64,000 nucleotides of DNA from Psammoneis japonica (Eukaryota). The DNA is taken from assembly GCA_008632985.1 (NCBI GenBank), contig QPGO01000164.1, positions 62,001-126,000 on the forward strand, written 5' to 3'. Numbering within the stretch: position 1 is the first letter of the stretch; every line of letters begins with the position of its first letter. Positions 2,973 through 64,000 of this stretch are shown here, in pieces. The notes beneath the pieces were generated by a model, which saw only the letters and a list, made by a program, of their open reading frames with translations, made no database searches and was not told the origin of the DNA. The position numbers were made by a program, and so were the translations under genes.

Positions 2973-2994
2973 CGCGTGAAATTCACGCGCGAAA
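2973..2994. promoter_or_regulatory. Palindrome CGCGTGAAATTCACGCG overlapping an E2F-like GCGCGAAA site in the divergent His6/BTB intergenic region
   Basis: Palindrome seen directly at 2973-2989. Function is inferred from position only. Confidence 0.25.
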
Positions 2995-10750: not shown

Positions 10751-10764
10751 CAGTGCGAATCAAG

Positions 10765-16100: not shown

Positions 16101-16300
16101 TACCAGGCTTTTGATGCTCCTAGTGTGTGTGTGGGGGGTGTTAGTGGAAGAGGTCATTCCTACTTAGATTGGGATCTCTATCAAATGTTGCCAACCGTCA
16201 ACCAGAGGTTGGCAAAAACGTCTGTTTGCCACACCGGAACGCGTCAGCGGTTGGCAGAATTCCGGACTTTCTAATCCGCGATTGGTCAGTCGTGGATACG
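13118..16300. mobile_element. Hypermutated repeat block with internal direct repeats
   Basis: TpA/CpG depleted. 32-bp direct repeat at 14638-14669 and 16139-16170; 45-bp tandem duplication at about 15722-15812; TGCCAACC..GGTTGGCA hairpins at about 14529 and 16189. Confidence 0.5.
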
Positions 16301-25730: not shown

Positions 25731-25748
25731 TTTGTCTTTTGGTGTGTT

Positions 25749-38120: not shown

Positions 38121-38299
38121 GGTGAACGCAGGAAAGCCCATCACACAAAATGAGCAACGACGAGGGCGAGGATACGACGACGAGGTGCGATGCAGCTTTT
38201 GTCGTGTTTGGCATAAGAAATCGAACAAATCGGGCTCTATTTTTCACGAAAAGCAGTGTCCGTTGAAAAAATGTGAGCGAGCATGGAGCCCACAAACAA

Positions 38300-40190: not shown

Positions 40191-40211
40191 CCATTCACAA
40201 TTAAACACGAA

Positions 40212-42404: not shown

Positions 42405-43819
42405 GGTCGTGTTGCTGATATACACAATCTTCTGCTGGGTTTCGTCCTCTCGCTTTTCAGTCCTTCTTTTTGTATGGAGCAAAACAACCGCACTCTTCCT
42501 TCTTTTGGTTTGTATGGAGCAAAACAACCACACTTCTGGGAAATGAGATGCGCGACTCGCAGTCGCGTATTCACAAAACTTCTTTGCGACCTCGAGCAGG
42601 CTGCAATGAAAACATTATGTAGGCAAAGCTAGAGGTTGCAAAAATCAACGCAACGCAGACGCAAAACCATCATTTTTACGAAAATGGGGCAGGCAAAGAA
42701 TCAGCGTCGCGTGCTAGTTGATGTGGGCCAAGTAGTGAATGACATTTGGGCGTCGAACACGTCACAGCTCGCCAACCGACTCAATGTTCTCCGCATTTCA
42801 GTGTGGATGCAAAATCTAACTCAACGAGAATAATGAGCGCAAAGCAATGTGGTATTTCTGACTTTGGCGACAAGGTAAATTCAAAATGGAGGCAAGGCAA
42901 AAAGAATTTTATGTCGAACTTCAGCCCAAGCACGAAAATCGTCGTCACATCTTTCACGGCACACAAGAACGTCCTCCACAGTTGAACCCAACAATGAGAT
43001 GCAATGGAGAGTGTTGCACATCCAACAGTGGCCATGCTGCCAGCTAGGATGCTGCAGCGGGCGAGGCTCATAGCTACAACCGCACAGCTTCAGAAGCCCA
43101 TCATACCTGTCGTCCGTCCTTACGCGCTCACATATGGCATACTTTATCATGAGCTATAGCTAGCACGCTCTACTTACGGAGCTCTTCGTATCTCTTAGCT
43201 ACTCTAGAGTAGAGAGGGCTAGCTAGAGAGCTCTCTAGAGCTAGCTAGGCGGACGACTGCTACCGGTAAACTAGTAGCTAGTCGTAGCTAGATAGAGCAG
43301 AGAGTTGCGATTGAGATACCCTAAAGCAGCCTAAAGAGATGGCACACCAGTAAATTCTGGAAAATGGGTCGGGATTTCGTAAGTTCGATCTTTCGGCAGG
43401 TGAAGATACATAGCAGGTGCACAGTGCTCTGTGCCACACCCCCACACGATTGCTGGTGCTGGTGAGATTTTGACTATAAGACCTCTCCTAGAGCGCTTAC
43501 AAAGCTAATTTTTTCAGCAAGTAGGCCCCATCATGACATGCCTCTCAGACAGCAACCAGATCCTTTCTTAGTCCATCTGGCAGAGAAAAAATAAGCCCTT
43601 TCATCCCGGGTAGTTATGACGCGCCTCTACATTGCACAATTTATCAAATGCTTTTTACTTCACGTATCCCCCTGACCCCTGCTATGCTACAACACCCCCG
43701 TCGTGTCATTATTCGCACCAAAATAATTGGCAAAGTCCATACAGTCAAGAAGTGAGCGGAACGTGGACTCTACTCTGTAGCATCATTTCTTTTTCGACGA
43801 GCTCGCTTCTGAGGTTTGG

Positions 43820-45309
43820 CACCTATCCTGAGACAGCGGAATAGGGTTTCTCTTGCTCTTCTTTGTCAACTCCCGTTTGTTGCACAGCCTGCGGTTTCTC
43901 TTTACTGTTCAATGTCGCTTGAGCAGCCGCAACTGGCAATCCCTTGTTGTTGGGTAGCTGCTGAGCGATTGCAGGGCGCTTCAGCTGCTTGTTCAATGCC
44001 ATCATTGTAGCAGCTACGTACGGATTATTTTGCATGTTAAAAGCCTGAGGAGGACCGCAAGAGGTCTAACTGATGGCTTGTTGAATGGCATCGGAGGAGG
44101 AGGAGCTCCAGGCGGTTTGTGTAGCCTGTTGAGCGGCAACGGGGGGTGCGGAAACGGTCTCGTCCCGAACGCCGGAGGAGGAGCAAGATTTCTATTTGGA
44201 TTCCCGATAGGGCCCAACGGCCTCTGCACAAACGGTTTCTTGCCCCCCAGAGCCATTGCAGGAGGCGATTTTCCGACAAGAGCAGTTGAAGGATGCGGCT
44301 TTGCGCCCACAGCAATTGCAGAAGGCGGCTTTCCACCAAGTGCACCTGTGGGAGGCGGCTTTCTACCCACAGCAACTGAGGCAGGCGGTTTTCCGCCAAG
44401 AGCACCAGGAGGCGGATTTCTGACAAAAGCAGTTGCGGGAGGCGGTTTTCCATCAAGAGCACCTGTTGTGGGAAGCGCTTTCCTCCCACAGCAATGGAGG
44501 CAGGCGATTTTCCATCAAGAGCAATTGTGGGATCCCTTTTGTATCAACCATCCTCTGAAGATACGTGTACGGTTTCACAATTCTTTCAAACGCCCTCTGA
44601 GCCAATAACGGATCGCTTTTTCTTTCTTCTTGGGAGATTTCTGAGCAGATGCATGGGGCTTCACGTTTTTTACCCCAGGAGCATTCTTCTTATACGGCTT
44701 TGATACCAAAATATGTTCACTCAGCTCTTCTTGCCTGGCGATTCCTATCCGTTTCAATCGCTTAATCTCGTCCTCGAGTGACTGAATATTTTTCTTTAGC
44801 CGTTCTTCCCGTCTGCGACTGGCGTTTAGATCGGTTCGTATTTCTTGTATGGTTTCATGAATGACATCTCCCGACATGAGGTCCAATGCTTCTGCCTTGC
44901 ATCGCATCTTTGAATTGGCCTTTTTCGTCGCAATGCGTCTCACCACTTTTCGGAGCTCGCCCGCCGCTTTCTTGAGGTCGGAGCAAGGACCACACAGAGT
45001 GTACCAAATTGCCGGATCATGCTCATGGAATCTCCTGATTCCCGTGCAATTCTTTGCGCGAAGATTATACGTCAAATCTGGCTCTACCGATATTTCCATC
45101 TTGTCTGCATCAGGAACGGTCGAAAAGTATTTTGCAAGCGGAATCGTTTCACCAGCAGCGAGCGAGCGGGGTTCTTCTGAAACGTACTCTTTGAGAGATG
45201 CAGCAATTAGACCGTAATCCGGTTCTCCAAGTTCTCGTCCGACGCAATCATCACTATCTGTTAATTTCATTTTCTTTCGTGGCGGTGTTTCACTGGTATT
45301 ACCGCCCAT
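43820..45309 (-). CDS. Hypothetical coiled-coil protein followed by Gly/Pro-rich 11-aa repeats; frameshifted, exon structure uncertain
   Basis: ORF 44575-45372 (PPRKKMK NLS-like, coiled coil) and ORF 44014-44370 (GGKPP repeats) on the same strand. Confidence 0.35.
44240..44530. repeat. Degenerate 33-bp minisatellite (about 8 units, encodes xGGKPPxxxAx on the minus strand)
   Basis: Recurring ggaggcggctttcc...agc units. Confidence 0.8.
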
Positions 45310-46001
45310 CGTGGCCAGAGCCGAGATGGACCAATGTTGACTCTGAAGGGAATCGCACATCGCACGGCGCACGGCAGAACGAAAAAAACAAGTCAGTGTG
45401 CAATTCCGTAAGCTTCAAAATTTAGTACAAAACACTTCAGTGATGCCAACGGAATTTAACATCTCAACAATAGGCGTGACAACTGACAACTCTATCGTCA
45501 AGCTTACCATCGTCGAGGGTCTTTGTCACTGGAGATAGAGTTTGTGCGGGAGGGTTGAGTTGTCGGTGAGATGGGTGTGTGGTGTTTGTTTGATTCTGTT
45601 CACCATTTTTTTTTGTTTTACTACAAGTAGAGTAGTTTTGTACCGTAGACAAAATGACTTCTGCAAGCAGGATTTGTACAGAGAAATTGGTATTGAAGTA
45701 CGCAACCGTTTAGTAAATACCACACCGACGTATGTACATTGCAATACAAAATTACGACAAATGTTAGTATCGCAAGAAGATAGGATGTTTCTTAGTATAA
45801 AAAGTGTCTCAATTACGTATTCAACAATTCCTACTACTAAGGACAGAGGTCTTTTTCCTATCTGAGGGCTGTATCGAAAGGTCATAGACTGAACTGAATT
45901 TTTAACCTAAATTGACATGTTCAACCTCAATGTGATACTTATGAATACGTAGAATCCGTACTGTTTCAAAATCTATTCATCAACACATAATATAAATGGG
46001 C

Positions 46002-46102
46002 CGCTCCGGGAAACAAAAAACATAAATTTTGATCATTAATTATTACTCAGTGCTAGATATAATTTATCATCATAAATTTATGTCTTCATGTTTTCCGGAG
46101 CG
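46002..46102. repeat. 101-bp AT-rich foldback inverted repeat
   Basis: cgctccgggaaacaaaaaacataaattttgatcattaattat pairs imperfectly with ataatttatcatcataaatttatgtcttcatgttttccggagcg around a loop of about 15 nt. Confidence 0.7.
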
Positions 46103-46319
46103 TTATGTACCTATCGTGCTACCTGTAGCTCTGATTATGGCCCAACATTGTAAAAGAGCCCGGATGCCAGAGTGGACACAATCGTCGATCGAATGAGGGA
46201 AAGTGAGTTACAGTAGAGGTATTGTCTACGGTATACGAGCACTCCATAGCGCAAGCTTCACATCGCTAAGAAGAGGTAGGCGTCAGAACTCGTTTTCAGT
46301 TCTTTCTAACCGCAACAAA

Positions 46320-48098
46320 ATGGGCAAGGAAGCAGAAGATGGATCATCTCCTTCAAGGACGACCGGGGATGACTGCTTCTCCGAGAATGAAGAGGTAGGC
46401 AAGTTAGAGATGCCGTCCCACCAGAGCAGTCGGATGCTCGAGCGGAAGCGCTCTGTGTCTGAGATCGCGGAATCGGATTCTTCTGGACGTTTCACGTCCC
46501 CCAAGTGGCTGAGTTGGATTGAGTATCCTTTTCGCGTCAAGTGTCCCAGTTCTGGCGCCCAGTTGAAGGAAGCGACTGGATGGTCGATGGACGCAGTCGG
46601 TAGGGGCGTTATCAACCAACTAGGTGGCTTTATAGCCCCCGCCATTTTGCGCTCGGCCTTTGTTGAAGCTGAGTGCAAAAGCAGTGACTGCACCAACACG
46701 GTGTACGGACTCAAGCCGTCATCTCTGCTTACATGTACGTAAGGGGTGTGGTGTGTGCGTGTTTGCCTCATTCATCTTATGTCGTCAATGGAAACACGAT
46801 TTCAATCGCCGTTGTTTATTCTCTCCACAGTCACTGCTTCCATGGTTGGAATCATCGCTGCGGTCCTGTTGCCGTTTGTGGGAGCCATTGTTGATCACAC
46901 TCGTCATCGCAAGACTTTGGGATGGGTATCAGGTGGAATCCTCGTTGTTGTTACAGGAATACAGATAAGCATTTCTCAAGAGAATTGGTTCTTCATTCTT
47001 ATCCTGGAAGCCATCGGTGCCTTTTTCGCGCTCGTTCATATTGTGGTCGTATTCGCGTATCTATCGGACATGACGACCCTCGAGAGTGATCTTGCACACT
47101 TGACAAGCAGATTCAACATGAATCAATATACTGGCCAGTTCCTCTTTGTCCTGACTATCATCATCATTACGTTGATCGAAGACGCCAACGTAACCGTTGA
47201 GAGCACTATCAATACTGCTCGCCAAGCCGCCATTATTGCATTTGCAATTGGTTTCATTACTATTCCCTACGCCTGGATCTTTCTCTTTCGCAAGCGTTCC
47301 GCCTTGTCAGAAGTGCCAGAGGGAAGCAACCTATTAACTGCTGGATTTGTGAAAGTTGGAAGGACCTCCAAGACCATCTGGAAGAAATACCATGCACTCA
47401 AGTGGTTCATGATTTCTCTCTTGATCAGTCCAGAGTCGGGCGCCGGCAGTATACTCACCATTATGTCGACGTACGCAGTTGTCTTTCTGGGACTCTCTTC
47501 CCGAGAGATCGGATATGCCACATTGGCATTCCAGTTTGGCACCCTTCCAGGGGCGATGATTGCCAAATGGTTGTGTGCCAAGATCAATCCGCTCAACACC
47601 TATAGGCTTAGTCTCTTTTTGTTGGGGCTTTTCGCTTTTGGGACCTTCATGACGCTTACGTCAGCCGACCGCAAGAACGGATTTTACCCATGGATCTTAT
47701 TCTGGGGATTCTTCGTTGGGGGCATCTATCCTTCGCAGCGAGTGCTTTTATGCACCCTCATCCCCAAGGGCCAGGAAACGGAAATGATGGGATTGTTCAC
47801 TTTTTGTGGACAAATCTTGGGTTGGCTGCCACCCGTTCTTTTCACAGCCATGAATCAGCGCGGAGTCAGCATGCAATGGTCTGCGATGGTCATTCCCGCT
47901 ATTTGCATTGGAGCTGTACTACTCACACTTCCGATGGGTTCCTACCAGAATGCGGTGCGTGTAGTGGGAATTGGAGATAAAGTGGAAGTGGAAGGCGGAG
48001 CCGACAATGAGGTGGAGAAATCTCGTGGCACAACGGATTCGTCAGATGAAGAGATTGGAGGCTTATCCACAGAGCGTGAAGCAGCCCCTAGTTGTTAG
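46320..48098 (+). CDS. MFS transporter, ATG22/UMF1-like, 2 exons
   Basis: EATGWSMD, LPFVGAIVDHTRHRK, about 12 hydrophobic segments, LIPKGQETEMMGLF. Intron 46735-46830 (gtacgt...ccacag). Confidence 0.85.
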
Positions 48099-48565
48099 AT
48101 GAGGCAGAGCTACATAGGGCCCTATGCATGTGTATCTTGTACGCGAAGCCGCTCCTTGTCGTTAGGTGGGACAGAGCAGAGCATGTGTGTCTTGCGTGTT
48201 ACTTTAGAAAATAGACTTGACCCTCGTAGCATTATTGATTACCGATAGTTCATAAGGGCAATATGTTTCAACCTTGCTTTTGCGTACATTTGTTTCGAAG
48301 GATTCTTCGTCTCGGATAGTAGCATGAGTTCAAGCAAGAGCAGAAACAGCGCTTTCCTCAAAACGGCACAGTGCTATCGGTGAATAAGTTCACTGTAGGA
48401 CTCTGTCGGTAAGGACAGCGCGCCCTTCTCGAAAGGTGTGACTTGAATGTTTTCTCTTGAGCACTGCAGGTGCTAGTTCCGTTTGCGTTCTCGAGGACGT
48501 CACATTTTTCTCTTAATCATGAGAAAGAGCTGTCTGGCTTATTGTAGCTCGGTCGGTCTCAATTC

Positions 48566-49093
48566 TCAATCGTCTCTAAACTCCTCTGGATAGTCAAAGC
48601 GATCACGCCAACGAATGTCCAAAAATGCAGTCACAAAAGAAAACCCACCAATCACTAGCTCTACCGTTTTGGCTTCCGGAATGGGCATTGGTACTCCTTG
48701 AGGTGCGGAAACTAGCATGGACAAGACGAGCGTCACTGCGGCTATTGCTCCCGGAACGCGGCGATCCACAATGGTGTGTCGTTTTGGGTCTGCGGGAAGC
48801 CACTTTTTTGCGGTTGCAAATGCTGCAGCCAGCGACAACACGACAAACACGCCACCAAACACAACGTCTCGTGTTGCACCGGCAGCCACAAAGGAGAGAA
48901 ATCCAAAACAATCATCCTTGTATTCATAGTTTTGCGGAGTTGCATGAACCATCACTGACGCTGCTGTCTTTTGGGGCAAATTGTGGTGGCGATTCAAGGT
49001 TGACGCCGAAACGGATGCCACTGGACAAAAGGCGGCTGCTTCAAAAGTGACCAGTAGAAGGGAGATTGCAGCAATGATTGCTTGTATTCTCAT
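48566..49093 (-). CDS. Hypothetical plastid-targeted membrane protein
   Basis: Signal peptide ending AAA-FCP (ASAFAP-like), Ser/Thr-rich transit region, 3-4 hydrophobic segments. Confidence 0.6.
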   Translation of the reverse strand: MRIQAIIAAISLLLVTFEAAAFCPVASVSASTLNRHHNLPQKTAASVMVHATPQNYEYKDDCFGFLSFVAAGATRDVVFGGVFVVLSLAAAFATAKKWLPADPKRHTIVDRRVPGAIAAVTLVLSMLVSAPQGVPMPIPEAKTVELVIGGFSFVTAFLDIRWRDRFDYPEEFRDD

Positions 49094-49167
49094 TTTAGTG
49101 CCCTTGTTCTACCGTATTGCTTTGTGCTTTGCGCTGTCTTTGTTATTGTTTGATGGTGTTTTTGGCG

Positions 49168-49383
49168 ATATTGGGGGAAGTCTCCAGCCAGCTGCTGGCT
49201 GAAGAATCTTGTGTAGAATTTATACTGAAAGAGTCTGTCAATCTGTGCGTTAGGGTGTTTTGGTGAACGCTGGACAGACTCGTCGTCATTCGCGCATGTA
49301 AAAATTCTACTGGCAAAACCCCCGAACGCACTGACGAGCAGACTTTTTTCAGCCAGCAGCTGGCTGGAGACTTCCCCCAATAT
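49168..49383. mobile_element. MITE-like element with a perfect 36-bp inverted repeat
   Basis: atattgggggaagtctccagccagctgctggctgaa (49168-49203) is the exact reverse complement of 49348-49383. The outer ATAT or TA may be the TSD. Confidence 0.75.
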
Positions 49384-50055
49384 TGTTGAAGGTATCTTTC
49401 TGGCTGGGATTTTGACATTTTCATCGAATTTTTATTCAGAAATTGAGCTGTGAAAAGTTTCGAAAAACGAAAATTGCAAAAAGATTACAATTTTGTTGTT
49501 GCATGATGAGTGATGAGCGCGTCGCGTCAATAACGCTGATGGTTGTTATGAGCGCGGCAATGATGGACTGTTGACCTTCGATGCTCTCTTCTTTCAACGT
49601 TGTCTGCTGTCCACAGTGTCACGGTGTTTTGTGCCTCATGTGAAACTCGCTTCAAAACTTCGAGCTGCGTTGACATGCCCGCGCCGAATCACAAATAATG
49701 AGACAAATGACACCAAAATGATTGCTCGTGTTCTGATATGATAGATCAGAAACAACAGAGTGGGACAAGATTTGGCACGATCGATTATTGATGACTTTTG
49801 GTTGCTATGATATAACTCTTCCTCTCTACTACCGGTAGCTAGCTAGAGCGAGTATGATAGGCATGGCAATTCCATTGAGGCGTGGCCTCGAGGTCACAAA
49901 GGAAGTTTTGCGATTACGCGACTACGAGGTCGTGCTACGGGAAAGATAGAGTTCGCATTTCCCAGAGAGTGGTCGCATTTTGCTTCCTTTTTGCATTTTT
50001 GCATCGAGAGGGGGGAAACCCATCAGAAGATTGTCGCTGCACCAGCAACGTAACC

Positions 50056-52602
50056 ATGGACCGCCACCCAGAAGACAAAGAGAAAAGGGCATACATTCAT
50101 TCTACTAGAGCTTCGGCCAGGAGGTGGTATGACGAAGATGACGACGATTTTGCATCGCTGCAGCCTCCAACCCGGATGCAAGACCAAAACTCATGCCAGG
50201 TTCTCATCGATGATGGAAAACTGCCACCAGCAACAAGGCGCGGACACCGTCGCACAAGCGATGGAGAGGAGCTTCGAGAAGAAACTGTTGTGGAAGATCC
50301 AAGAAGAAGCGATGCCGTCGCCAGCAGCAGCATAGCTCCGACAGGCACAGGGGCTTTTGCCATCCGTGGCAGTCAGGTCCGCCATCGGTCTTCTCCTGGG
50401 ACTCATCATGATGAGGAGACTCTTTTTTCCGATGCGCCAACCGTCGCCACGCCACCACCTCCGCCGGCGCCAGATGAAAGGACCGTACTCGTTGAAGCTG
50501 AGATTGCACAAGAAGATGCTGATGTACGAGCACGAATGGACTATCTCGAAGCACAAAATGAACGCATGCAAGCGCAGATGGAACGCCTTCGATTGGCGGA
50601 GGTTGCGGAAGTTGTGCCCATTGGCGGTTTGCCTTTTGATGGAGAGGAAGATGGCATGGTGGACAATGAAGAGCCTCGGCAACAACAGCAAAATGAAGAG
50701 GAGGAAGTGCTCGCTTCGGATGTTGACAATGGCGGAAGCAAGAAGCGCAACCGTTTAATTGCTTTAGGAGTATTCGCACTGGTAGTGATTGCCTTGGCGG
50801 TGTCAATTCCACTTGCTGTCTCCAATTCTACAGGCGCTAGCAGCGGAAACAACGCAAGTCCCAATTTGCCTCCAACCGAGCCTGCTTCGCCTCCTTCAAC
50901 ATCAACTCCAAGCCCAACTCCTCAATCTACTTCACCGCCGGCAGCTTTGCCTCCGACGTCAACTCCAAGCCCAACTCCCCAATCTACTCCGCCGCCGACT
51001 CCACCACCAACTCCTCGAAGGTTTGAATTCTTAACGGTACCTCGGCAGAGGTTCGCTGTGGCAGGCGGACCGGTGGGTGACAGCAATGCCGTGACCATTT
51101 CTCCCGATAGTGCGGTACTTTACGTCACTCGTGCCGATGGTACTCTGGATGGACTCAACCCAGAGACGGGTGAGTCTCTTACTGGATTCCCAATCAGCCC
51201 CGGATCCTTCACCGGTGCAGCCTCGCACTCTTGTAACAGTGGGGTTTTCATTCACGATGGTTCGGCTGGCGCAAATGCCTTCGTTGTCTACTCTGTCATC
51301 ACGGGCGAGGGAAACACGTAAGTGGATTTGTGCTCGCGTGACGATGCTGTTATTATTGTTGTTATTGCTGCGTCTAGTCCTGAATATGTGGTTGTGTGGT
51401 ACATGCGAGTGGCCGGGTCATTGGCTTTGTCTTTGCGTATGAGAGCCAATGCGTTGTCTGTCGTGATTCGTGGTTCCTTCATCGTACTCTTTCGAACGTG
51501 ATATGATGGCGATCGTGCCAAGTGACGACCTGAGTCATGCATGGGTCACCCGTTATGCATGTTTCTAGCCATTTCACTGCCTCATGAATTGGCGATCTAT
51601 ACTTTTCTACGCAGATTCACCGCGGCGATCTCGCACCCGGATGGTGCCCTTCTTTGGGCCACTGAAGTCCCTGGAATCTCTGAAGGTACTCCTGTCATCG
51701 CAGCTCTTGGTGACTTTGTGTACTTGACTCACAACCAAGGCGCGGTCGGATCTTTTACTATCCTTGATGCTACAAACGGCGGTGCAATCTTTTACACCGA
51801 GGAGAACCTCAACGGTACGTTTGCGTACACCGCCCCAGCCATTTACCACAACCCCGCGTATGGCAACTACATTGGTGGCTTTGATCCTACTCCCAACAAC
51901 CCTCAGGGCTTGGACAACACGAACGACATTCTCGCCTGGTCAGCCACGGTCATTCCATTTGACAGTGGAAGAGGCCAGACCTTTGCCTTTCAGCTTCCAA
52001 CCAACTTTATCACCGGGGACGACAGCACCGGTTTTGCGGTCAAGTACCTTAGTGGAACTGGTTGGCTCTCGAGAAACCCACCCGCCATTGCCGTCGATGG
52101 TCTTCGCCAATACTACGGAATCTCGCGTAATTCCCTCAGATGCTATATCCCCACCGCTACGCTTCGTGGACGTTGGGATGAAGCTGCCATTGGAACAAGC
52201 AACGAGCCGTATGGCCGTGGCAACCCGAGGTTCAACGATCCTCCCAATACCCCGACTGTGAACGAAGCTGGCAGTGAGCTCTACCTTGGCTTTGCAAGTC
52301 CTGTCTTTGCCTCCCTCGTCGCCGATGTCCCAGGCTTGGACGAGAGGTGGAGTAAGAATTTGGGCTCGATCGTTAATACCAGAGCCGTGCTTGCTCAAGA
52401 CGAGAGCGCAGTCTACTTTGCCGAGTCTGACCCTGCCGTTATCCACTCCACCAAGACGGCCGACGGAACAGACTACTTTGCGGCACCACTTGCTGGAGAT
52501 GGTGCCATTGTGACTGCCGAGATGTCACTTAGCCCAGATGGAACAACTCTCTATTTCGCCGAAAACTCGGGCACGGTGTACGGCTGGACAGTTTTTAACT
52601 GA
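50056..52602 (+). CDS. Type II membrane protein with Pro/Thr stalk and PQQ-like beta-propeller (paralogue B)
   Basis: Colinear with 40212-42404 on the opposite strand, same intron position (about 51318-51614), shared C-terminus GTVYGWTVFN. Confidence 0.75.
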
Positions 52603-53272
52603 TTCGCGGAAGGGTGAATGCAACAACCATTGGTGCCATTCTCTTTCTTATATTTGCATCTTGAGGCGTTTTTAAGCTACCAGTTGCTGTGTCCGTAAAA
52701 TAATGCACACTTATTGTACGAAGATACTTTGCAAGTTTCAAAATGCACTGCGCAATTGATTCTGTCCTTCGTTCCCAACAAAGTGCTACACTCCGATGTA
52801 GGGTCTCGAAGTGATCGCCATCAGGTTCAGCCATTAACAGCAGAGACAATCGCCCACTTTCAGCATAACGCATGCGTCATATAAATCTATACCGGTATGC
52901 GTTTGACGCGGTCGAATCTCATGCATGGAAAACCACAGAAAACCTTGATGGTTCTTTGTTTTGCGCGTCTGCGCTGTCATGTACGTGCAACCGCCGACAG
53001 GTCGTCATACAAACATTGTTGGGCTCTGTAGCTGGGAGCGATCTTGGTGTGTTGATCCGAAGAATGCCAAGTTTGAAACCTGTTGAAAGTTAAGATTGCG
53101 AATTTCGCAACCTAGCTGTGTTCAGCTCTTATGTGTACAGAAGAGGATATAAGCCAGATATTAGTTTGGACAATGCACACAGATCACAGTAAAGCGATAG
53201 CATGAGTAGTGTAGTCGTACCGTAGATTGCCGCCGAATTGTCCGTTTAGAATTATCTGCTTTCGTGCTTATT

Positions 53273-54253
53273 CTATTTTTGGACAAGACTGCTTTTATCA
53301 AAGAGATGTGAATACACCTCATTGTTGTAATCCATCTTGTAAAATTCATGGATTCGGTCTTCAAACTCGGTGTTGTTGAAATGCAAATGCGTCGTCTTGG
53401 CTGCGGTTGTTTGATGGCCGGGCTTTACAGCAAACATCGACTCGTTACCAAAAGGACCCCACCCACTCTTTCCATACTTTTCCCACAATCCAACACGTTT
53501 CAGGAGCCTTTCGGCATCCCCCGCTATATTCTTAAAGTCCCCCACAAAGTTAATATAGGGCCAGTATTTTGCCTCCATTCGGTTCCACTGTGGTCTCCAG
53601 TGAATGTCTTGGGTAAAGTTCTTTTCGACAATGTAATCAAAGAACGTCTCGAGAGATCCCAAATGTTTCCAACACATTTCTTTTGTCTGACCCTTGCACT
53701 GTCTTTTATAAAAGTAATTCCCAAAGTCATTAATACCCTTGTTCATGTACGCCGAAACCATGCGCTCTTTGGGATCTCGCACAAAAATGGCTCTCGTCCA
53801 CGTGGGATCCGTCATTTGTTTCGTTGCCTCTTGAATGGAATAACTGGATAGAAACTTGAGGCCATTGTACGAGGGATCGTAGGGCAATTTCGCACCGTCC
53901 GTCACGTTCCAATCCGAGTATCCCATGGCACGTCGACAGAGCTTTAGAAACTCGGAACAACCCACCTTGGCGGTTGCAAAAAAGATAAATTTGTACTCCT
54001 CCAATACAACGGGAGCTTGTTCATATCCAACTGTATAGACCGTGTCATATTTTGATATTGTCAGAGGTAGCGGTGGTTGTAATTGTGGTGCATGAGAAGT
54101 TGTGTTCTGGACGTGGGGGTCCAAGTTTATGGCCGTGAGAATCATAATGGTCACGCAACCTGCCGTCAATGCCAGCGCAAGAACCAGCACTAGAAACGGA
54201 GGCTTTTTTCTTGTACGTCTTGTTTGAAGAGGACGGTGTACATGATGTTTCAT
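53273..54253 (-). CDS. Sulfotransferase family 2 (Golgi carbohydrate sulfotransferase-like)
   Basis: N-terminal TM anchor, 5'-PSB FFATAKVGCS, 3'-PB IFVRDPKERMVSAY, DIHWRPQ, INFVGDF. Confidence 0.85.
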   Translation of the reverse strand: MKHHVHRPLQTRRTRKKPPFLVLVLALALTAGCVTIMILTAINLDPHVQNTTSHAPQLQPPLPLTISKYDTVYTVGYEQAPVVLEEYKFIFFATAKVGCSEFLKLCRRAMGYSDWNVTDGAKLPYDPSYNGLKFLSSYSIQEATKQMTDPTWTRAIFVRDPKERMVSAYMNKGINDFGNYFYKRQCKGQTKEMCWKHLGSLETFFDYIVEKNFTQDIHWRPQWNRMEAKYWPYINFVGDFKNIAGDAERLLKRVGLWEKYGKSGWGPFGNESMFAVKPGHQTTAAKTTHLHFNNTEFEDRIHEFYKMDYNNEVYSHLFDKSSLVQK

Positions 54254-54728
54254 CTTGCGTTTTTTTTTTTTTCAAAGTCTTTGACAACGCGGACAGGGAC
54301 GATGTTGGCGTCGCCGCTTTTGCAGAGCGTTGCAATGTGTGCCATGGGGGTGATGACCCTGTGCATCGAAATCGAAACCGCAAGTCCTCCCATCAGGTCG
54401 CGGATTTCAGTCCCGAGTACAGTATGGTAATTGACTTCTTGTCTCGCGCACGTAGTGCGCGGTTATTAGACTGTGTAGGTGTGTGTACGTGTGTGAGGTG
54501 TAAGTAGAATATACGTAGAATTACTGCTGAGTGAGTTGACATGCGGTGGATTTTCCGCCGGTACACAATCTACGTGGTCTACTTGGAAGATAAATTTATG
54601 TTTATCTCCGATGCTTTTACACATCATTAAAATTGCTTCTGTCTTTTAAATGTGTGTGCCGCAATTCAAAAATCTTACAGAACACCCCGAAAGAATTCTG
54701 GAATCTGCACAAAAAAATTTCTATTTAA

Positions 54729-55261
54729 CACGGGATCCGTGGATGCACCAGGGGAATCTGCGAAATGCGGGATGAAAGGGGAAAGGGGCAAATGTGAATG
54801 GTGGAAAAGTGACATGCTGTTGTTTTACCTTGAGGGACCCTTTGGTCAGCCAAACACGCTCATTGCTGATTTGACCCTCGCAGGTCCGTCCTTTCGGGGG
54901 TCGTGAAATTGTAGAGCAGACGCGGTCTCGAGAAATAATTTTGCACATTGTGTGTTTGACCATTGGCATCATGTAAATCTGAAAACGACACACACAAAAA
55001 ACGCGCATGCACGTTTTTCAACTTTGCATGACCTTCATAGCCAAATGTGTCATGTGACGATTGATCCTCAAGACGCGTCCCGTCACAACATTTTGACACC
55101 CCCCACAAGACGGACCTGTGATGGTCAGATGACAAGTGTGCGTGTTCGGCTCACCAAAGGGACCCTTGGGGCACAACAACAGCCCCTTGCTTTCCTGACA
55201 TTCCCATTTGCCCCTTTCCCCTTTCATCCCGCAATTCCCGGGTGCACCCGTGGATCCCGTG
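54729..55261. mobile_element. piggyBac-like MITE with long imperfect TIRs
   Basis: Ends CACGGGATCC...GGATCCCGTG with inverted similarity over more than 150 bp. Flanks are TTAA (54725-54728) and TCAA (55262-55265). Absent from unit 2 (empty site TTGA at 61982-61985). Confidence 0.85.
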
Positions 55262-55577
55262 TCAACGGTCCGAACAGGTTTCTCAAAATGACTTCAGATT
55301 AACCACAGTGAAACATCCACTGTTGCCAAAACACAGTGACTGTCGGATGAACAGATCCCGTGTTCTTCGCTCGCAAACAACACAACAACGCACAACAACA
55401 CCATGGCGAGAAACGCGAACGCCATCCCCTCATCTACAAGCTGGAAATGCAAGATGCTGTTGAAGCGGTTGGACAATGTGTGTGTGCTGTTTTCATGGGT
55501 CAAGTTGGGTTTCTTCTCGCTGCTTGTTGTTGCGTCATTTTACAACATTTTGACCCACGCCGTGTTCTTTGCTTTGT

Positions 55578-58500
55578 TGTGGCTGTTCGCCACCAACGCT
55601 GCTGGGGGGTGCGTCCCACTGTAGTTGGGAGGCGGCAGTTGGTGGTGTCAGCGCTTTGCTGGGGTTTCTTGCCCTGACGGGTTCCAGTCCCAGGTGGGAC
55701 TCCATGTGACATTGGGCCTGTAGAATTCTGCATGCGAGCTCTGCAGTGAATTTGCACTGCAATGAAAATGTGAATGATCGCCAACAGAAAAAGAGGCAAT
55801 TTTACGAACATGTCTCCTCCTTCATGCTTGGAGCACATCATTGACAGTTTGCCCGGGTGTGTTCTTCAGACATTGAAGAATGCACCCAGCGCATTTTCAC
55901 TCTCATGAATGTTGAAAATAGAAAGCCTTTGGCTTCGCAAAACAGGGAGTGTGAAACAATTTCGTAGAATTTTACACGTGGAAATGTGCGTGCGCGACAT
56001 GCGGCGCGATCCAAAAAACTGTTGATGTCACAGTGCCAATGGGAATCATTCAGCTCTCAGAGTCATTGCGTGGAAGTTGTGCAGAAGAGCACCAGAAATG
56101 TTTGTCATCAGTCTGTCCACCTGTCCGCACTCGAATGTCAACTCCTCGGGAAATCAATTGAAATGTTGTCTGACCAAGGGCATTGCTCTTCACCATCTAA
56201 ATCAAAACACCCTTGGTCAGACAACATTTCAATTGAGTTCCCGAAAAGTCAGTAGCCCCAATCACCCTCTCGTATGACATTGTGCATGTTTCTGCACGAT
56301 TTGGCATTTTTCCTCATGCAAAATGCCAGTTGTGACTCTTGCGACATTTTCGAATGATTCCCATTGAGCAGTGCGAGGTCCCACCTAGAGCTGGAACGCG
56401 TCCCCTCTTTGGGCTCACCAGCAACAGAGACCGCCGGTGCTGGGTGGGAGTGGAGGGTCAAAAAGCCACAACTGCTGCTGCGGCCTCGACAGGTGGCGAT
56501 GAGTTGCAAAGAATGCCACTGGCATTCAGGTTCGTTCAAGGCTGCATGCGGTGGGAGGTGGATGCATCTGTCCTTCCCCCTGCACTGCTGCAATGGCTGT
56601 TCGCCACCAACGCTGCTGGGGGGTGCATCCCACTGCAGTTGGGAGGCAGTGGTTGGTGGTGTCAGCGCTTCACTGGGGTTTCTTGCCCTCTTTGGGCTCA
56701 CCAGCAACAGAGACCGCCTCCAATCCGCCACTCTTGGAGTGCCAACAAGTGAGAAGGGGTTGGGCCAGAAGCGCAGCTGAGGGTGGGCACCGTTGCGAAC
56801 CCATCAGTTGGTGGGTGCTTCGGCTTGATTGATGATGTTTTGTGCCACAGGGGGGACCTCGGAGCCCGGGAGCAACGTGAAGTTGGACCGTCTTTGGAGC
56901 ACGCGCTGTGCAGGCGAGTGATGCGAGGATCCATGGTGCCATGTGGGGTCAAGCGTGGGTCCGGGGCCCCCAGTTGGTGAACGTCTTCGAGCGTGAAGGA
57001 CTTCGTCACGAACATGCGGAGCTGAGATTGGGTTGCCGCTGCGGCTGAGGCGTCCATCCCCAAGGTGACAGGCAAAGACTCGGAGTGTCGGGATTTTGTC
57101 TTGGACACTGGTGAGGAGAGGGTTGTCGACTCCTGATGTCGGACAGGAAAGGTGACCAACATTTGGCCCAGACGGTGTCCGTGGCACGGGCTCGCTCGTC
57201 AGTGACAGCTTCGTGGGCCTTTGCCGTCACAAGGCGGAGATCAGTGAAGAAACGATGTTGGGCGGTGGGAGTGGCATTTGCCAAGGTTTTGTCTGTGGGG
57301 CAAGGCGAGTGAGAGTGGCAAGGAGGTGAGACGGTGCACTGAATTTGCGGGAGCACGTGTTGGCGAGCAGATTTGCTGGCCCAGGTGTGCAATGAAAGTG
57401 GGAGACGTGTCGCAGCTTTCATTGTTGCAGGCTGCCGGTCCGCAGCATGTCGGCGCCGGGGTCGTCGGTGGTGATGGAGCCTTTGCCGCGTCGAGAAATG
57501 GAAGGCATGTTGTCACAGCACGTGTGGACAATGCGTTCTCTGACATTGACAGCGATGCCTGCAACGGATTCTTGCAGAGCCATTCCGGCAAGTTGGAGAT
57601 CAGAGTTTGTTGTTGCACCATCGGGGTTGTCGTCCGAGACAACAGCAGCTTGCAGATCTGGTGGCAGTGGAATTTGCCAGGCGGCAGGAGGGAAGTCGTC
57701 GTGGGGGCCTGGCAACAACACGCCGCCAAAACCTGGTTTGGCTGCGTCGCACGCACCGCAGCAATGCCCGTCGGCGGCAAGGAACAGTTCGGCAAGCCTC
57801 GTTGGATGAGAAGCAATGTCCATTGCCAAGGTGTGCAAGTCTTGGAGTTGGCAGCGAGCATGACGGTTGATTCGAGTGCGGGAGTTGCTCGAGGTGGCTG
57901 GAGAGTGCTGGAGATTGGAGAGCAGGCCAGCGCTGCCAGACACCACCAACAGCATGCTGCGCACTTCGCCCACAAGTTTGTGGCATTGCTTGTTGGACAT
58001 GCGGCGGCATGGAATGGTGTCGGCAAGCATGTCCAGGAGGCGTTGTCGTCGATGTGACGGCAACTGGATTGTCCCTGCTAGCGTGTCAATGAGCCAGCCC
58101 AAAATGACTTTGACAGTTGACCAAGACGCATCACCTTTAAGAAGCTTCTTGAGCGAGATAGTTTCGCGCCGCCAGTGAGCATCGGAAGGTGTGTTGGGCC
58201 GGAAGACTTGGTCGTCAATGTGCAAGAGGCGGCGATGTAACTTGTTGAGGCAAGCTTTCGATCCTTGCGCGGCGCACATCTTGTCGTTGATGTAGACATC
58301 AAAGTGCTCCAACAGTTGGGAGCCTCGCTGGTGTCTGTGACGAAGAGCGGCGGGAGAAGGCAGGCGTGACACACGGCTGGCTGGAGCTGCAGTGGAAGGC
58401 GGCGGCACGTCGATGCGCGGGGCATCGTCGTGGGGTGCTGGAGTGGATGCCGCCTGTTCAAGTGGATGAATCGGAGGGTCCCAGGCTGTGGGATGATGGC

Positions 58501-61500
58501 TGTTTGCCAAATCGACAACAGTTTCCGTTCCCACACAAAAGAACGGTGGACTCTCGGTCCAGCCCATGGGTGGGACGAGAGGCAGCGCTGTCAACGGTTC
58601 CTCGCCCGGGCCCACTGGGAAGGCTGCCCCAAGCTTTGGCATGTCCTGGGGGCAGAGCCCAACACGACAGAAGCCGTCTGAGAGATCGAGCTTAAGCATG
58701 TGCACTGGGCCATGCTTCGGATCAGCTCAAAAGATCTTGCAGAGGGACCTGTCGAGAGCTCGGCCGAATTGCATTGCCTCCGGTGGGGCGTGTTTCACGG
58801 TTTCGTCATTGATCCCGTAGAAACTGTAATCAATGATGGTGCGTGGGTGGCGGTCGCGTTGCGGCACCACGCCCATCGGTGAGACGTGCAGGTGGGGCAA
58901 CTTGCAGGCTTCGCGGTGTGGCAGGACTGTCCAGCATCGCTTCTGGATCATGTCCGCCATGTCAGACTCGAGGAAACCCAGGCACTCGTTGGTGGACGGA
59001 TGGCTTCCGCGCTCTGTGGCCATCCGAACCTGGTCAGGTGTCCAGTCCTCCGTTGAGAACTGGACCGGTGCTCCGTCGGTGCGGAGATCGGAAAGAAGCT
59101 TGGCAGCTGGATGAGGCAACTGCTGAACATTCTCGGCCAGACACGGCTCCCTGCGCAGATGTGCAACGAACTGGCTCCAGCTTGAAGTTGGCAAGAGTTT
59201 GACATGCTCCTCTGCTGACTCACCCAGTCCATTGCTGCGTGGGCACTGCTGGTGCAGATCTGGCAAGTGGGCAGAGGAGGGCTGCAGGCCAGCTCTGGGG
59301 CTGGCCGGCCCCTGTCCTCAGATGGACGCCGCCGGCGCCGGCGCGGGTGCCGGTGCCGGTGCTGGGGCGCCACCTTCTTGAGGGTTGGACACGTGGTCGC
59401 AAACGAAGGCGCTCATTGCCGTCCTTTCTTGCGGTGAGAGGTTCCGGTGGGTGCTGCTGCGCTCACAGTTGGCGAAGCACGCACCCTTTAGATGATGCGA
59501 AAGGCACACTTCGCACGCGGTGCCACTCGGGTCCGTGGTTCGAGGCGCGAAGCGTCGCACCGTGGCCAAACAGATCCCAGCTTGTGCAAAGGCTGCTGGC
59601 CAAGCTCGCACCGGGTTGGAATTTGCAACGGCCGTGCCGGGGTCGCGACGCCCAGTGGCAGCAGCTGGTGCAGAGGTGGTCCCACTGTTGTGGGTGCTGG
59701 TCGAGCTCGTCTGGGGATTGATCGCCCTGTCTGGCTGGCCAAGCAAATGACGGGGCAACTGTGCCAGCAGGGAGAATTGCCCGTGTGGCACCTTGTGCGC
59801 CACTGCGGTGTAGTCGGGCACCCGGGGCACACTGCCTTGCATGAGCCTGCAAAGATGGACCCCCATGAGTGTCTGCACCTTGCAACAAATGCGGGGAAGG
59901 ACGTTTCCTTCGGCCAGAAGGGCTCCTGATTGCTTGAGCAAGTCGACCATGTCCCGCCAGTCGTCCAAGCAGAACTGCTGGAAAGCCACAGCATGTGGAT
60001 GGTCTGAGCCTTGGATGACATCCAAGACTGAGCTGGTGGCTTGGAGCATGCTTCCACAATGGCAAGTGGACGTTGGCAGCGGCACATCCTTGGTGCGGAA
60101 CTCCTCTTGTTCTGCAACGGTGGGTGTCAGGTTGCCTGCCAATGCAAGGTCGTGGCGTTCGGCCCAGACTTGCACAGCAGAACCTTGTCTGGCAAGGAAG
60201 AAGCCACAGGTGAAGGGTGATGCACCGGTGGTTAAGTCATTCACTTGGTGCACATGGGGTGCAACCTTCCCTTGCAACACCATCTCTTGTGGCTCCTTCG
60301 AAACCACAGGTGCCACACGAGACGCCGCGTCGGGTTCTTGGGCACGCGCCTCCAAGGCACAAGCAAAACACAGGCACCGCTTGGCTTTTGTGCTGTTGGC
60401 CCAAGCGTGGCACAGCACGGGCAAGGGTGCATCATCCAGCATGCTCAAAAGCAAGAGCCACACGGGTGTGGTCTGAGGGAAGGCTTCCACCAGAGTTTTG
60501 GGTGCTGCGGCTGCGGCTGCGGCTGCCAAGCGTGTTGCTTCCGCGCGTGCTGCATTGGCTCGGACTGTGTCAGCGAAGGCTGGCACGTGGTCGGTGTCAT
60601 CAACGGCCATTGAATCCAAGGCGGGCAGGTCCTGCAACAACGTGTGCCAACAATGCTCTTGCAGTCTGGCGTCCACCGCCAGTGGCGGCAAGGCTGTGGC
60701 ACGGTCGCCCAGACAATGGACCGGATCTGGATTCGCCGCGGTGTCGGTGGTGAGTGCCGTGCGCAACCAGTCGATGAGAGCACTCAAGTCCCCCACGCGA
60801 CCGTCATTTTGAATTGCTCCTGCTGGTTCCCACCAGGCTTGCAGTGGGGTGAGATCCCGAGTCAGCACGAGATGCAGGCAGGCAAGGGGGGCTTGTGCAA
60901 GATGGCGGATGTAGATGGTGTCGGTTTCCGGGGCGCCATCGGTCTGCGGCGGTGTCAGGTCGTCATCATCCACCAAGGTGCCTTCGAGGGCAGCCATGTT
61001 GGCCACAGCAGGTGCCACTTGAGGGCCCACAATGTCGAACGGAGCGTTGGGCATCTCGAGAATGGCAACAAAATTACCAGGTGGGACGTCTCCATGAAAA
61101 CAAAACACGCGTCCGTCCCACGGCGAGGTCTCCACCGGGTCTCTGATGTGTGCAGAGGGCCGGTGGATGCAGGTGATGCGACAACCTGTGCCTTGCCGCA
61201 CTGGCGCCAAAGGGGCCTTGGGCACCATGTCGCTCGAGTCGATGATGTGCTCGAGCAGCGTGGCGGCCAGGTCGGGAGCAGTGACGGCAGTGTCGTGCCA
61301 ACGGAACAAATTTGCGCACTCCCCACCCAAGTGATCTCCTTGGCTCATCCACTTGTCGTGGCATGTTTTTGGAGGGGCCGGTGGTGCTCCACCGGCGTCC
61401 ACAGGAGGGACAGCAGCCATGAAGGGACAAAGGTTGGTGCATGTCGCTCCCTTTGTCAAAAAGTTGCAACTGCTGCTGCGGCCTCGACAGGCGGCGATGA

Positions 61501-61590
61501 GTTGCAAAGAATGCCACTGGCATTCAGGTTCGTTCAAGGCTGCGCACGGTGGGAGGTGGATGCATCTGTCCTTCCTCCTGCGCTGCCACA
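55578..61590 (-). mobile_element. Ngaro/DIRS-type tyrosine-recombinase retrotransposon, degenerate, with split direct repeats
   Basis: gag 61420-59318 ending CLSHHLKGACFANCERSSTH. RT SPMGVVPQRDRHPRTIIDYS, KLDLSDGF, PMGWTESPP, VYIND. RNase H CDAAKPGFGG, TNSDLQLAG, CDN. YR N-terminal fragment LGAPDPRL. Repeats A1 61457-61590 = A2 56457-56590; B1 56595-56720 = B2 55580-55675 plus 56403-56440. Confidence 0.9.
55676..56402. mobile_element. Non-autonomous TIR element inserted into the Ngaro B2 repeat
   Basis: Imperfect TIRs of about 26 bp (gacgggttccagtcccaggtgggact / ggtcccacctagagctggaacgcgtc). 4-bp TSD CCCT at 55672-55675 and 56403-56406; uninterrupted B1 has a single CCCT. Confidence 0.8.
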
Positions 61591-62586
61591 ACTTCTGCTT
61601 GAGCACAACCAACAGCTCTTCCTGCAGGGTGTGGCCAGTTGCACGGCTGCATCGAACCCAAACGCGCGCGACCAACTGGCCCCACCCCGGCCAACTCATC
61701 TCGCACACGTGTGCGCGGTTGTCAGACTGTGCAGGCGTGCACACGTGTGTGAGGTGCAAGCAGAACATGCACAGAATTGCTGCTGACTGAGTTGACAGGC
61801 GGTGGATTTTCCGCCGGCACACAATCTACAGGCTCTGCAGGGAAGACAAATTTATTTTGGCCCCTGAGGCTTTTAAATGTCATTGAATTTTCTAACGCCT
61901 TTTGTTCACACATGTGCCAATTCAAAAGTCTGACAGAACACCCCGAAAGAACTGTGGAATCTGCACAAAAAAAATTTCTATTTGACGGTCCGAACAAAGT
62001 TGTCGCGAAGCGCTTCTCAAAATGTCTTCCAATTGAACACAGCAAAATGTCTGCTGTTGGCAAAACAGAGTCACTGTGGGCAAAATAGATCCCCGTCCTT
62101 TGCGTGCAATGACAGCGGCACGACAATGCAATGCACAACAACACCATGGCGAGCAATGCAAACACCATTCACTCATCCACCAGCTGGCATTTCCAGACAA
62201 GATCAAAGCTGTTGGACAATGTTCATGTGCTTCATTCCTGGGTCAAGTTGGGTTTCTTCTCATTGCTTGTTGTCGTGTCACTGCTTGCTTTACAACGTCT
62301 TGACCCACGCCATGTTTTTTGCTTTCTTCGCTTCTGCTCCATCGCGTGCGTGCCACAGCTTTTCCTGCAGGGTGTGGCCAGTTGCTCATCACATCAAACC
62401 CAAATGTGCGCGACCAACTGGCCTTGCCCTGGCTAACTCATGCAGCACTGCACTCCCCCGCGCTGACCGCGCTGACCCCCGGCTGACCCAGGGCTGACAC
62501 CGCGTGCAATCCCACAGCGCGCGGCACTGCACGTCAGCAGTGCGGAAAAAATGACCGTGCATTCCATGCAGACCACGAGCTCTGGC

Positions 62587-62712
62587 GCCACCCGAGTGTG
62601 TCACTCGAACTCTGACGTCCGCAAACACTGGAGCGAACCCCAAAGTTCCGCCACCCGAGTGCGTCACTCGAACTCTGACGTCCGCGAACACCGGAGCGAA
62701 CCCCAAAGTTCC
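62587..62712. repeat. 63-bp tandem duplication
   Basis: gccacccgagtg(t/c)gtcactcgaactctgacgtccgc(a/g)aacac(t/c)ggagcgaaccccaaagttcc x2; all three differences are at CpG sites. Confidence 0.85.
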
Positions 62713-62719
62713 GACCATT

Positions 62720-64000
62720 TGCTCACCCGAATCGCTCGCTCTCTCCCCCTCCTCCTCCTCCTCCTCCACACACACACAAAGATGTGACCAACCAAATGCA
62801 AACACCACATCGTGTCGCATCCGGACGACCTGCAATGACTGCTGTCAACATGCCCCACCCAACTTGACAAGCAAATCTCAAAGATGGTGGAGGTGAGTTG
62901 TTGCCATGAACCGTGGCTTCCTTCCTCTTTGGAAACAGGAGGTTTGTTGTTTTGTCTTTGCTTCTCAGCTGTGCTGCTGCACGTGCGTGGCACACCACTG
63001 GTGGTTTTTGGTGTTGGTTTCCACTCAGCTGAGCCCCATTCTCCAGCTCAGCCCACCCACTCAGCTGAGCACAATGATCCCTCATCGGCTCAGCTGAGCC
63101 TTTTGTTGAATTTTTTCTCAGCTGAAGGATTTCACTCACCTGAGATTCTTTCTTCCTTTGTTTGCAGACCCATCTCCACCCCCACCAGGGCGAAGTTCTG
63201 CTGCTTTGGTGTCTCAGCAGAGGACTGCTGAGATTGCCAGTGCTGGGAGACGTGTTGCTGGAGCTCCTCCTCCTGGTGGTGCCTCCACAGCTGCAGCTGT
63301 TGGCGGCGGCAGTGCTGGTGCCAGCGCCGCTGGAGCCCGTGGCAAGGGCAAGCGCAAGGGTGCCAAGGGCCAGAGCCAGCCCAAGAGGCACACAAGGGTG
63401 CACACCAGGCTGCATCTGCCCATGCTTCTTCTGTGGAACCTGGCATCATTCCCTTGCCTCAGGGCGAAAAGGAGCTGTTGCAGCACCTCATTGCTTGCTG
63501 CAAGGAAATTATGGATCTGAAGGTTCCGCCCACTGTTGGGGAAGGCCTGATGCCCAGCAACCCCAAGGCTGCTCACAAAAGTTTTGCTGAAAATTTGGGT
63601 GCTGTTTTTGCCTTCAAGGCGGTGTTTGGATCTGGCCAGAAGGTCCCTGGCAAGGTTTTTGCCACCATGCATGGAACAAACTGTCTGCCTGACCACGTCA
63701 AGAGGCTTCGTTCTGAGGACACTGAGGCCAATTGTGAACATCTCTGTGCCAAGTGTTTCAATGTTTTAGACAAGCACTTTCCCCTGGGACACTCCATGGG
63801 TTTTGGGGCATGGTGGGGCCGACTTCAAGCCGCAATCAAGGAGGACAAATTTTGGGCCCCCGGTGTTCATGGCTGCAATGCACCTGGAAAGGGTTTGCTG
63901 TGTTGCGGATTCCTCATCATTCTTCTCAAGCACCAAGTGGTGAAGGACCGTCAGCACCAGTTGGAGCTGGTTGTAAAACTCTAGGTTGCAGTCTGTAAAA
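62720..64000. mobile_element. Unclassified hypermutated repeat, runs off the window end
   Basis: TpA-depleted, Cys/His-rich ORF remnants such as 63433-63984. No family motif recognised. Confidence 0.4.

Follow-up and report, generated by a model that had tools for sequence, protein, structure and literature searches.

We analysed 64,000 nucleotides from the diatom Psammoneis japonica (GenBank assembly GCA_008632985.1, contig QPGO01000164.1, positions 62,001 to 126,000 of the forward strand). This whole stretch is referred to as the window, and all coordinates given here are positions within it. At 54729-55261 the window carries a short inverted-repeat element, a miniature inverted-repeat transposable element (MITE), whose target site is present in three states: TTAA at the left flank, TCAA at the right flank, and TTGA at the empty site in another copy of the repeat that received the element. 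The reading that we favour, at a probability of about 0.7, is that the element inserted at a TTAA site and that the island extending to its right was then hypermutated in place, specifically at TpA steps. The first-pass annotation of this DNA had used the same three states to propose a piggyBac-type element, an order of mutations and a position for the edge of a mutated domain. Its observation is confirmed, and its interpretation is partly supported.

Three states of one target site

The features on which the argument depends are as follows.

54729-55261, no strand assigned: non-autonomous terminal inverted repeat (TIR) element (MITE) of 533 bp, from a multi-copy family
54729-54749, forward strand: left TIR, which begins CACGGGATCC
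55241-55261, reverse strand: right TIR, matching the left TIR at 18/21 positions, with GGATCCCGTG as the element end
54725-54728, no strand assigned: TTAA at the left flank, one of the two copies of the duplicated target site, with the final TA ahead of the depleted domain
55262-55265, no strand assigned: TCAA at the right flank, the other copy of the duplicated target site, its TA changed to CA
54441-54728, forward strand: left part of repeat copy A (A-left), a high-copy repeat, still TA-rich with 23 TA and an observed-to-expected ratio (o/e) of 0.88
55266-55578, forward strand: right part of repeat copy A (A-right), 3 TA, o/e 0.13, truncated at 55578
61699-62328, forward strand: repeat copy B, about 7.2 kb downstream, TA-depleted on either side of the empty site
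61982-61985, no strand assigned: TTGA, the empty site of copy B (TA to TG)

Direct reading of the sequence confirms that the three states are real. The filled site in copy A reads tctat-TTAA-(CACGGGATCCGTGGATGCACC ... GGGTGCACCCGTGGATCCCGTG)-TCAA-cggtcc, and the empty site in copy B reads tctat-TTGA-cggtcc, with a single 4-mer. Because the empty site holds one 4-mer and the element ends are CAC...GTG, the duplication is taken to be one of 4 bp. When the element and one flank copy are removed, copy A (54442-54728 plus 55266-55578) is colinear with copy B at 79.4% and 78.2% identity, the first value being that of A-left against 61699-61985. A degenerate pattern of the 21-nt terminus occurs twice in the 64-kb window, once at each element end, and none of 100 shuffles gave two occurrences. 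The arms of the element pair imperfectly over 151 nt (77%). Five TAs remain in the element (o/e 0.16); four of 51 TA, CA and TG sites in the left half are TA as against one of 51 in the right half, a difference that is not significant (p 0.36).

TA is supported as the ancestral centre of the target site, and the piggyBac premise from which the first-pass annotation derived this polarity is not needed. At the site itself, parsimony requires two changes from TA and three from CG or CA. An ancestral TCGA that lost its CpG by decay was considered and rejected, as it takes three changes instead of two and also requires insertion at a non-TTAA site. The same direction is seen along the left part of the repeat. 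The 23 TAs of A-left correspond in copy B to CA at nine positions, TG at seven, TA at four and other steps at three, and none of the five TAs in the left part of copy B is CA or TG in copy A. The asymmetry is thus 16:0 (p 3e-5).

Other copies of these sequences point the same way. Contigs from three runs (one sample, one study) were aligned to 54300-55700 only, at a likeness of at least 80%, and all statements on contigs and depth refer to these alignments. Inside the element, other-copy contigs have TA at 54965 and 54973 (three of three contigs) where the locus reads TG/CA. In A-right, they have TA at 55449, 55456 and 55459 (50-73% of depth), where the locus again reads TG/CA. Two further repeat pairs lie elsewhere in the window. 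In the pair 14511-14669 and 16139-16197, TA is retained in the copy that lies immediately beyond an island, and the one within has CA/TG (16139-16170 against 14638-14669). In the pair 38736-38802 and 39084-39150, both copies are inside an island; the first keeps three TAs and the second has lost them.

Tyrosine codons provide a protein-level record of the change, in a frame that lies between copies A and B.

57131-59212, reverse strand: degraded reverse-transcriptase (RT)-like frame, with three in-frame stops, all TGA, and 3 Tyr in 694 codons

A Tyr that is invariant in the 43 of 43 homologues with a residue at that position is Cys in this frame (TAY to TGY), and at another position the five closest homologues have Tyr where the frame has His (TAY to CAY). 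With one Tyr in 435 residues, the frame has the lowest Tyr content of 45 aligned sequences.

Insertion created the two flank copies as identical sequences, and the TA is where they differ today; therefore, the change at the right flank was chromosomal and took place after insertion, as had been claimed. Whether the three-state pattern stands out from chance depends on the surrounding domain of TA loss, and this domain was confirmed independently.

TpA-depleted islands and the edge at the element

The domain that begins at the element is one of several in the window.

54727-64000, no strand assigned: TpA-depleted, CpA/TpG-enriched domain of at least 9.3 kb, running off the end of the window

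Six sharply bounded TpA-poor islands alternate with ordinary gene-bearing DNA, at approximately 8562-10766, 13159-16076, 18312-19679, 25451-36498, 38238-40080 and 54727-64000. By dinucleotide counts, TpA o/e is 0.00-0.10 in the islands and CpA/TpG o/e is 1.4-1.95, compared with about 0.6 and 1.2 elsewhere. The gain of CpA/TpG in the islands equals the loss of TpA, plus the loss of CpG where it is present. Change-point analysis of TA/(TA+CA+TG) detected 11 sharp edges, whose support intervals are 25-350 bp wide. The islands at 25451-36498 and 38238-40080 share repeats with the last one, in which the depletion is unbroken across at least four repeats, namely the element, the repeat unit, an RT element and copy B. 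Across 55001-64000, TpA o/e per kb is 0.00-0.19 and CpA/TpG o/e is 1.4-1.7, and there is no TA at all within 56387-58078. In this island nearly every TpA has become CpA or TpG. Normal DNA at 40086-54440 has a TpA o/e of 0.60.

The edge of this domain coincides with the element. TA/(TA+CA+TG) is 0.25 to the left of the edge and 0.053 to the right, and the ratio is 23/64 in A-left as against 8/170 in the element and A-right together (Fisher p 5.5e-9). Maximum likelihood puts the change point between 54726 and 54729 (2-lnL support interval 54647-54789, about ±70 bp). The first-pass annotation had located the edge within a 0.5-kb interval on the strength of the flanks. The edge does lie at the element, and its position has been tightened to the interval above; it is placed by the TA map, and the flank pair alone does not place it.

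CpG is also lost (o/e 0.06-0.2) at 9-10, 13-14, 27-36, 39-40 and 63-64 kb, and it is largely kept at 56-63 kb. This retention suggests that TA was lost faster than CpG decayed. Within 54729-64000 the stop triplets number 14 TAA, 18 TAG and 161 TGA. Since TAA and TAG are nearly gone, long open frames are found in all six frames of 55000-64000 and 25452-36498. Segmental duplications of TA-normal, apparently genic DNA (75-84%) occur at 40029-42452 against 52782-50005 (inverted) and at 23953-24568 against 36466-37078; two of their starts are within about 50 bp of the island edges at 40080 and 36498. The window contains a single N, at position 349, and is otherwise unambiguous.

The repeat that received the element is far more abundant than a pair of copies. 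Copy B, which holds the empty site, had been described as a sister unit, a term that does not hold, as it is a member of a high-copy dispersed repeat. In total, 581 contigs aligned to 54300-55700, of which 98 were at least 99% alike. Summed contig depth is 54-66 in bins up to 54440 and 1,689-11,364 from 54441 onwards, that is, 30-200 times the single-copy flank, although this depth is not a copy number. Contig joints from 54729 to 55280, 55339 and 55490 represent copies of the unit without the element; these contigs align through TTAAC, which was given no weight for the state of the site in those copies. Loose contig ends at 55579 indicate that the sequence of other copies runs on from there like copy B, and copy A is therefore a truncated member of the repeat. 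Within the element, summed depth is 458-6,838 and separate, diverged contigs are also present; hence the element, like the flanking unit, belongs to a multi-copy family. A metagenome scan with the 21-nt terminus found three loci whose likeness was confined to the 21-mer, and these were taken as chance matches.

A retroelement occupies the DNA between copies A and B. A tblastn comparison with the homologue P0121 aligned residues 2-701 at 53% in a single frame (59212-57131). The RT-like frame has 65 homologues, one of them from Epithemia clementina; RVT_1 was weak and below threshold in these homologues, and a Pfam search of the frame itself gave no match. Split direct repeats surround the frame: 55580-55675 equals 56594-56689 (93%), 56457-56593 equals 61455-61591 (92-93%), and 61612-61706 equals 62355-62448. 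This layout is suggestive of tyrosine-recombinase (DIRS/Ngaro-type) retroelements, but no recombinase was found. Copies A and B as long terminal repeats (LTRs) of the RT element were also considered. This reading was rejected as unproven: the copies are 79% alike though the internal frame is long, no TG...CA ends were seen, and copy A is truncated at 55578, where other copies continue like B. On the forward strand of 55579-61698, TG exceeds CA (628 against 515, three segments summed), which may reflect either a strand bias of conversion relative to the retroelement sense strand or coding composition.

To the left of the edge the DNA is that of a host gene neighbourhood.

53273-54253, reverse strand: sulfotransferase gene, a single open reading frame (ORF; 53273-54271) with its first Met at about 54253; Pfam PF03567 Sulfotransfer_2, E 2.9e-20

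The DNA of this gene is TA-normal, with a TA/(TA+CA+TG) of 0.233, and the element inserted about 470 bp upstream of it. An Atg22-like transporter is encoded at 46743-48095. The named homologues of both proteins are all from diatoms (Fistulifera, Staurosira, Epithemia, Entomoneis, Phaeodactylum, Thalassiosira and others), and none is above about 53% identity.

Identity of the element and explanations of the pattern

The element is very probably a TTAA-targeting inverted-repeat element, and the terminal motif of neither TTAA-duplicating superfamily considered, piggyBac or Kolobok, fits it. The piggyBac label given to it earlier could not be upheld. Elements of the piggyBac superfamily have TIRs of 12-19 bp and generally a CC[C/T]T terminal motif, according to the literature consulted (PMC2872659), and the present termini are CACG...CGTG with a TIR of 21 nt. 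The piggyBac argument was also circular, as piggyBac was deduced from TTAA and TTAA then from piggyBac. Profile scans found no transposase family in seven ORFs or in 100 of the 136 window ORFs of at least 130 aa. The other 36 are all situated between 49879 and 63981; three of them were covered as stop-inclusive frames in the scan of seven, and the remainder are mostly overlapping alternative frames within and around the TA-free island. The short non-coding TIR element, the 4-bp duplication and the TTAA of the intact copy do resemble piggyBac and TTAA MITEs as described (PMC2872659), from which the element differs in its CACG...CGTG ends and in a TIR of about 21 nt that extends into 151-nt imperfect arms, in the one copy examined. 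Kolobok elements also make TTAA-specific 4-bp duplications and are recorded from the diatom Fragilariopsis cylindrus (PMC9587614). Their termini are given as 5'-RR...YY-3' (PMC9587614), a motif absent from the window element, which ends in 5'-CA...TG-3'. In the diatom Phaeodactylum, piggyBac, MITEs and DIRS are all listed (PMC5859163).

An element that duplicates TA alone, as Tc1/mariner or Stowaway-like MITEs do, is a rather unlikely alternative. With ends ACAC...GTGT, a 2-bp TA duplication fits the letters of the filled and empty sites equally well, and the missing CC[C/T]T motif speaks for it. Such an element would have met the T-TA-A context by chance, and just 25 of the 562 TAs (4.4%) in normal DNA of the window sit in TTAA, for which reason a TTAA duplication is favoured. 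If a TA duplication did take place, the piggyBac label would fall and the polarity argument would survive.

In the favoured reading, the two copies of the repeat would have separated before the element inserted, with a 4-bp duplication, at an intact T-TA-A inside the truncated copy. The island would then have been hypermutated by a TpA-specific A:T to G:C process acting in place on chromosomal DNA. The TCAA right flank and the TTGA of the paralogous empty site may be two alternative products of this one process, and the TTAA left flank would have been just outside the heavily mutated domain. This order is probabilistic, since partial mutation of an island could leave a TTAA intact. Action in place on the chromosome is deduced from fixed differences, and the unbroken run of the depletion across different repeats agrees with it. 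There are six double differences of CA against TG between A-right and the right part of copy B, and such differences indicate that conversion probably took place independently in each copy. The likeliest chemistry would be deamination of adenine in 5'-TA-3', with an ADAT2/TadA-like enzyme directed to silenced or repeated DNA.

Several points weigh against this reading or limit it. The present data identify no enzyme or targeting signal. An ancestral CpG could equally yield double differences of CA against TG, and five such differences are found between A-left and copy B as well. The TA-to-TG changes private to the element rest on three contigs. The TTAA preference is drawn from one readable element copy (TTAA at left, TCAA at right and TTGA in the empty paralogue), and the piggyBac terminal motif is missing from it. 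The three runs may be the source of the assembly itself, in which case the contigs are not independent. Across the right flank, a contig of single-copy depth (50.9; 128 nt, 55228-55355) matches at 126 of 128 positions, and the two mismatches were not located. Finally, A-left has itself been touched, as positions 54622 and 54652 read CA/TG where 94% and 82% of other-copy depth reads TA. Together with the five double differences, these two sites suggest that about one fifth of A-left TA sites were converted, whereas the share is roughly 75-95% on the right side of the edge. The copy nearest to the sulfotransferase gene had been said to have escaped. Its left flank is indeed an intact TTAA and A-left is TA-rich, but at least two A-left sites were converted. 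The escape was thus partial, a single intact TA is what would be expected there, and a role of the gene in it would be no more than a possibility. Because conversion rates differ across the edge, a retained TA on the left together with a converted TA on the right is the likeliest outcome for the flank pair.

Neutral drift between old copies that are about 79% identical is an improbable explanation. Differences of one base between 4-mers would then be expected and would carry no special signal: about 59% of the 4-mers in A should have an altered counterpart in B at 20% divergence, and between the termini of the element there are already three mismatches in 21 positions. TA, CA, TG or CG steps, however, account for over half of the differences between A and B, with a residual divergence of about 10% elsewhere. 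Unbiased drift cannot yield the 16:0 asymmetry, 11 sharp change points, or a TpA o/e of 0.00-0.05 over kilobases.

Quite improbable, too, is an artefact of sequencing or assembly, in which base modifications in silenced repeats (for instance of T or A at TpA, or 5mC at CpG) led to systematic miscalls. Depletion is found precisely in the repeats, where polishing with short reads works poorly; the best run contained just 0.39 of the 31-mers sampled from 54300-55700, and both the possible shared origin of contigs and assembly and the two unlocated mismatches are compatible with an artefact. On the other hand, 98 of the 581 contigs are at least 99% alike, and the contig of about single-copy depth agrees with the depleted part at all but those two positions. 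Strand-specific miscalls at the palindromic TpA should leave TA and new CG, whereas hardly any TA is left and there is no rise in CpG. At shared sites, short-read contigs also show TA in some copies and TG in others. The same type of mutation was reported to arise de novo in Illumina data from the chlorarachniophyte Bigelowiella natans (bioRxiv 10.64898/2026.01.13.699255).

A reversed polarity, in which CpA/TpG became TpA in A-left by a process like repeat-induced point mutation (RIP) and the TA-free state is original, is extremely improbable: the TA share of TA+CA+TG in A-left (0.359) does exceed that of normal DNA (0.209; p 0.008), but originally TA-free sequence over 9-11 kb is not credible, conserved Tyr residues are Cys or His in the RT frame of the island, most other copies have TA where copy A has CA/TG, and a second repeat copy differs from A-left at no more than six positions outside 54545-54672 and therefore keeps most of the ten TAs in 54455-54544.

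The edge at the element may have one of three causes. It is possible that the 288-bp piece forms a separate block of homology, too short for recognition. A chromatin boundary near the gene promoter is also possible, as is restoration of A-left by gene conversion from an unmutated copy without the element. A broader proposal, which we put forward tentatively and regard as doubtful, is that diatoms have a RIP-like defence of opposite chemistry. TpA-directed deamination of DNA adenine would saturate repeat islands and stop at the limits of homology blocks, and the 288-bp piece severed by the MITE would have escaped by falling below the recognition threshold and not through its proximity to the gene.

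Related systems and meaning for diatom genomes

The closest known case is the TpA-specific hypermutation of B. natans, described in a 2026 preprint (bioRxiv 10.64898/2026.01.13.699255). According to its account, 231 of 302 de novo mutations fell in two integrated viral regions, and all but one were A-to-G or T-to-C changes at TpA. The preprint also reports 124 clusters that are poor in TpA and rich in CpA+TpG, with an enrichment of RT and DDE domains, and names an ADAT2-like deaminase as the candidate enzyme (bioRxiv 10.64898/2026.01.13.699255). The window resembles this system in several respects. TpA alone is changed, to TpG or CpA (16 of 23 sites converted here, with none in reverse). They are restricted to regions, and the islands of the window hold mobile DNA, as with the MITE, the high-copy repeat and the RT element in 54727-64000. 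The long-term signature of TpA-poor, CpA+TpG-rich clusters with RT or DDE domains is common to both, and in both the process appears to act on chromosomal DNA.

The two cases also differ. The host here is a diatom, a stramenopile, and not a chlorarachniophyte. The B. natans region derived from a nucleocytoplasmic large DNA virus has a Rho of 0.45 in the preprint, whereas depletion here is near saturation (TpA o/e 0.00-0.10). Giant-virus and virophage inserts are the targets described in B. natans, and repeats and retroelements are affected here. Some islands of the window have also lost CpG. In B. natans, de novo events were recorded in mutation-accumulation lines, as against the fixed signature alone in the present case. 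A full-text literature search returned no report of TpA-specific hypermutation from a diatom, and the B. natans preprint was the sole matching report in the literature searched.

RIP in fungi acts in a CpA context and has a length threshold. The window shares with RIP, as described, dinucleotide-specific transitions that saturate repeats in place, sharp limits and wrecked reading frames (PMC3318451). The chemistry differs, since RIP changes C to T (CpA to TpA) and raises TpA, and here TpA becomes CpA/TpG by A:T to G:C changes. The islands are thus not products of RIP in the sense of C-to-T change at CpA in duplicated DNA with TpA raised, as the polarity is opposite. Dependence on homology is at most a possibility here, and the B. 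natans target as described is single-copy.

Editing of retroelements by APOBEC or ADAR before integration is likewise a deaminase-type transition hypermutation of mobile elements (PMC4866542). ADAR has a 5' U preference, as quoted in the B. natans preprint (bioRxiv 10.64898/2026.01.13.699255), and this mirrors the TA context seen here. In the cases described, these enzymes act on RNA or cDNA before integration (PMC4866542), whereas in the window a DNA transposon, its chromosomal flank and adjoining repeats form one continuous domain.

This locus adds to what composition can provide. The target-site duplication times the chromosomal change to after the insertion, and the edge is resolved to about ±70 bp. 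One repeat copy has a half on each side of the edge, and the two halves offer a natural comparison that can tell targeting by homology from targeting by chromatin. In addition, islands without TAA or TAG stops and without Tyr codons produce spurious long ORFs and hide transposon proteins from profile searches, and both effects are seen here. If the favoured reading is true, TpA hypermutation would be present in a second, ecologically dominant lineage, and an editing-type genome defence may be widespread among eukaryotes.

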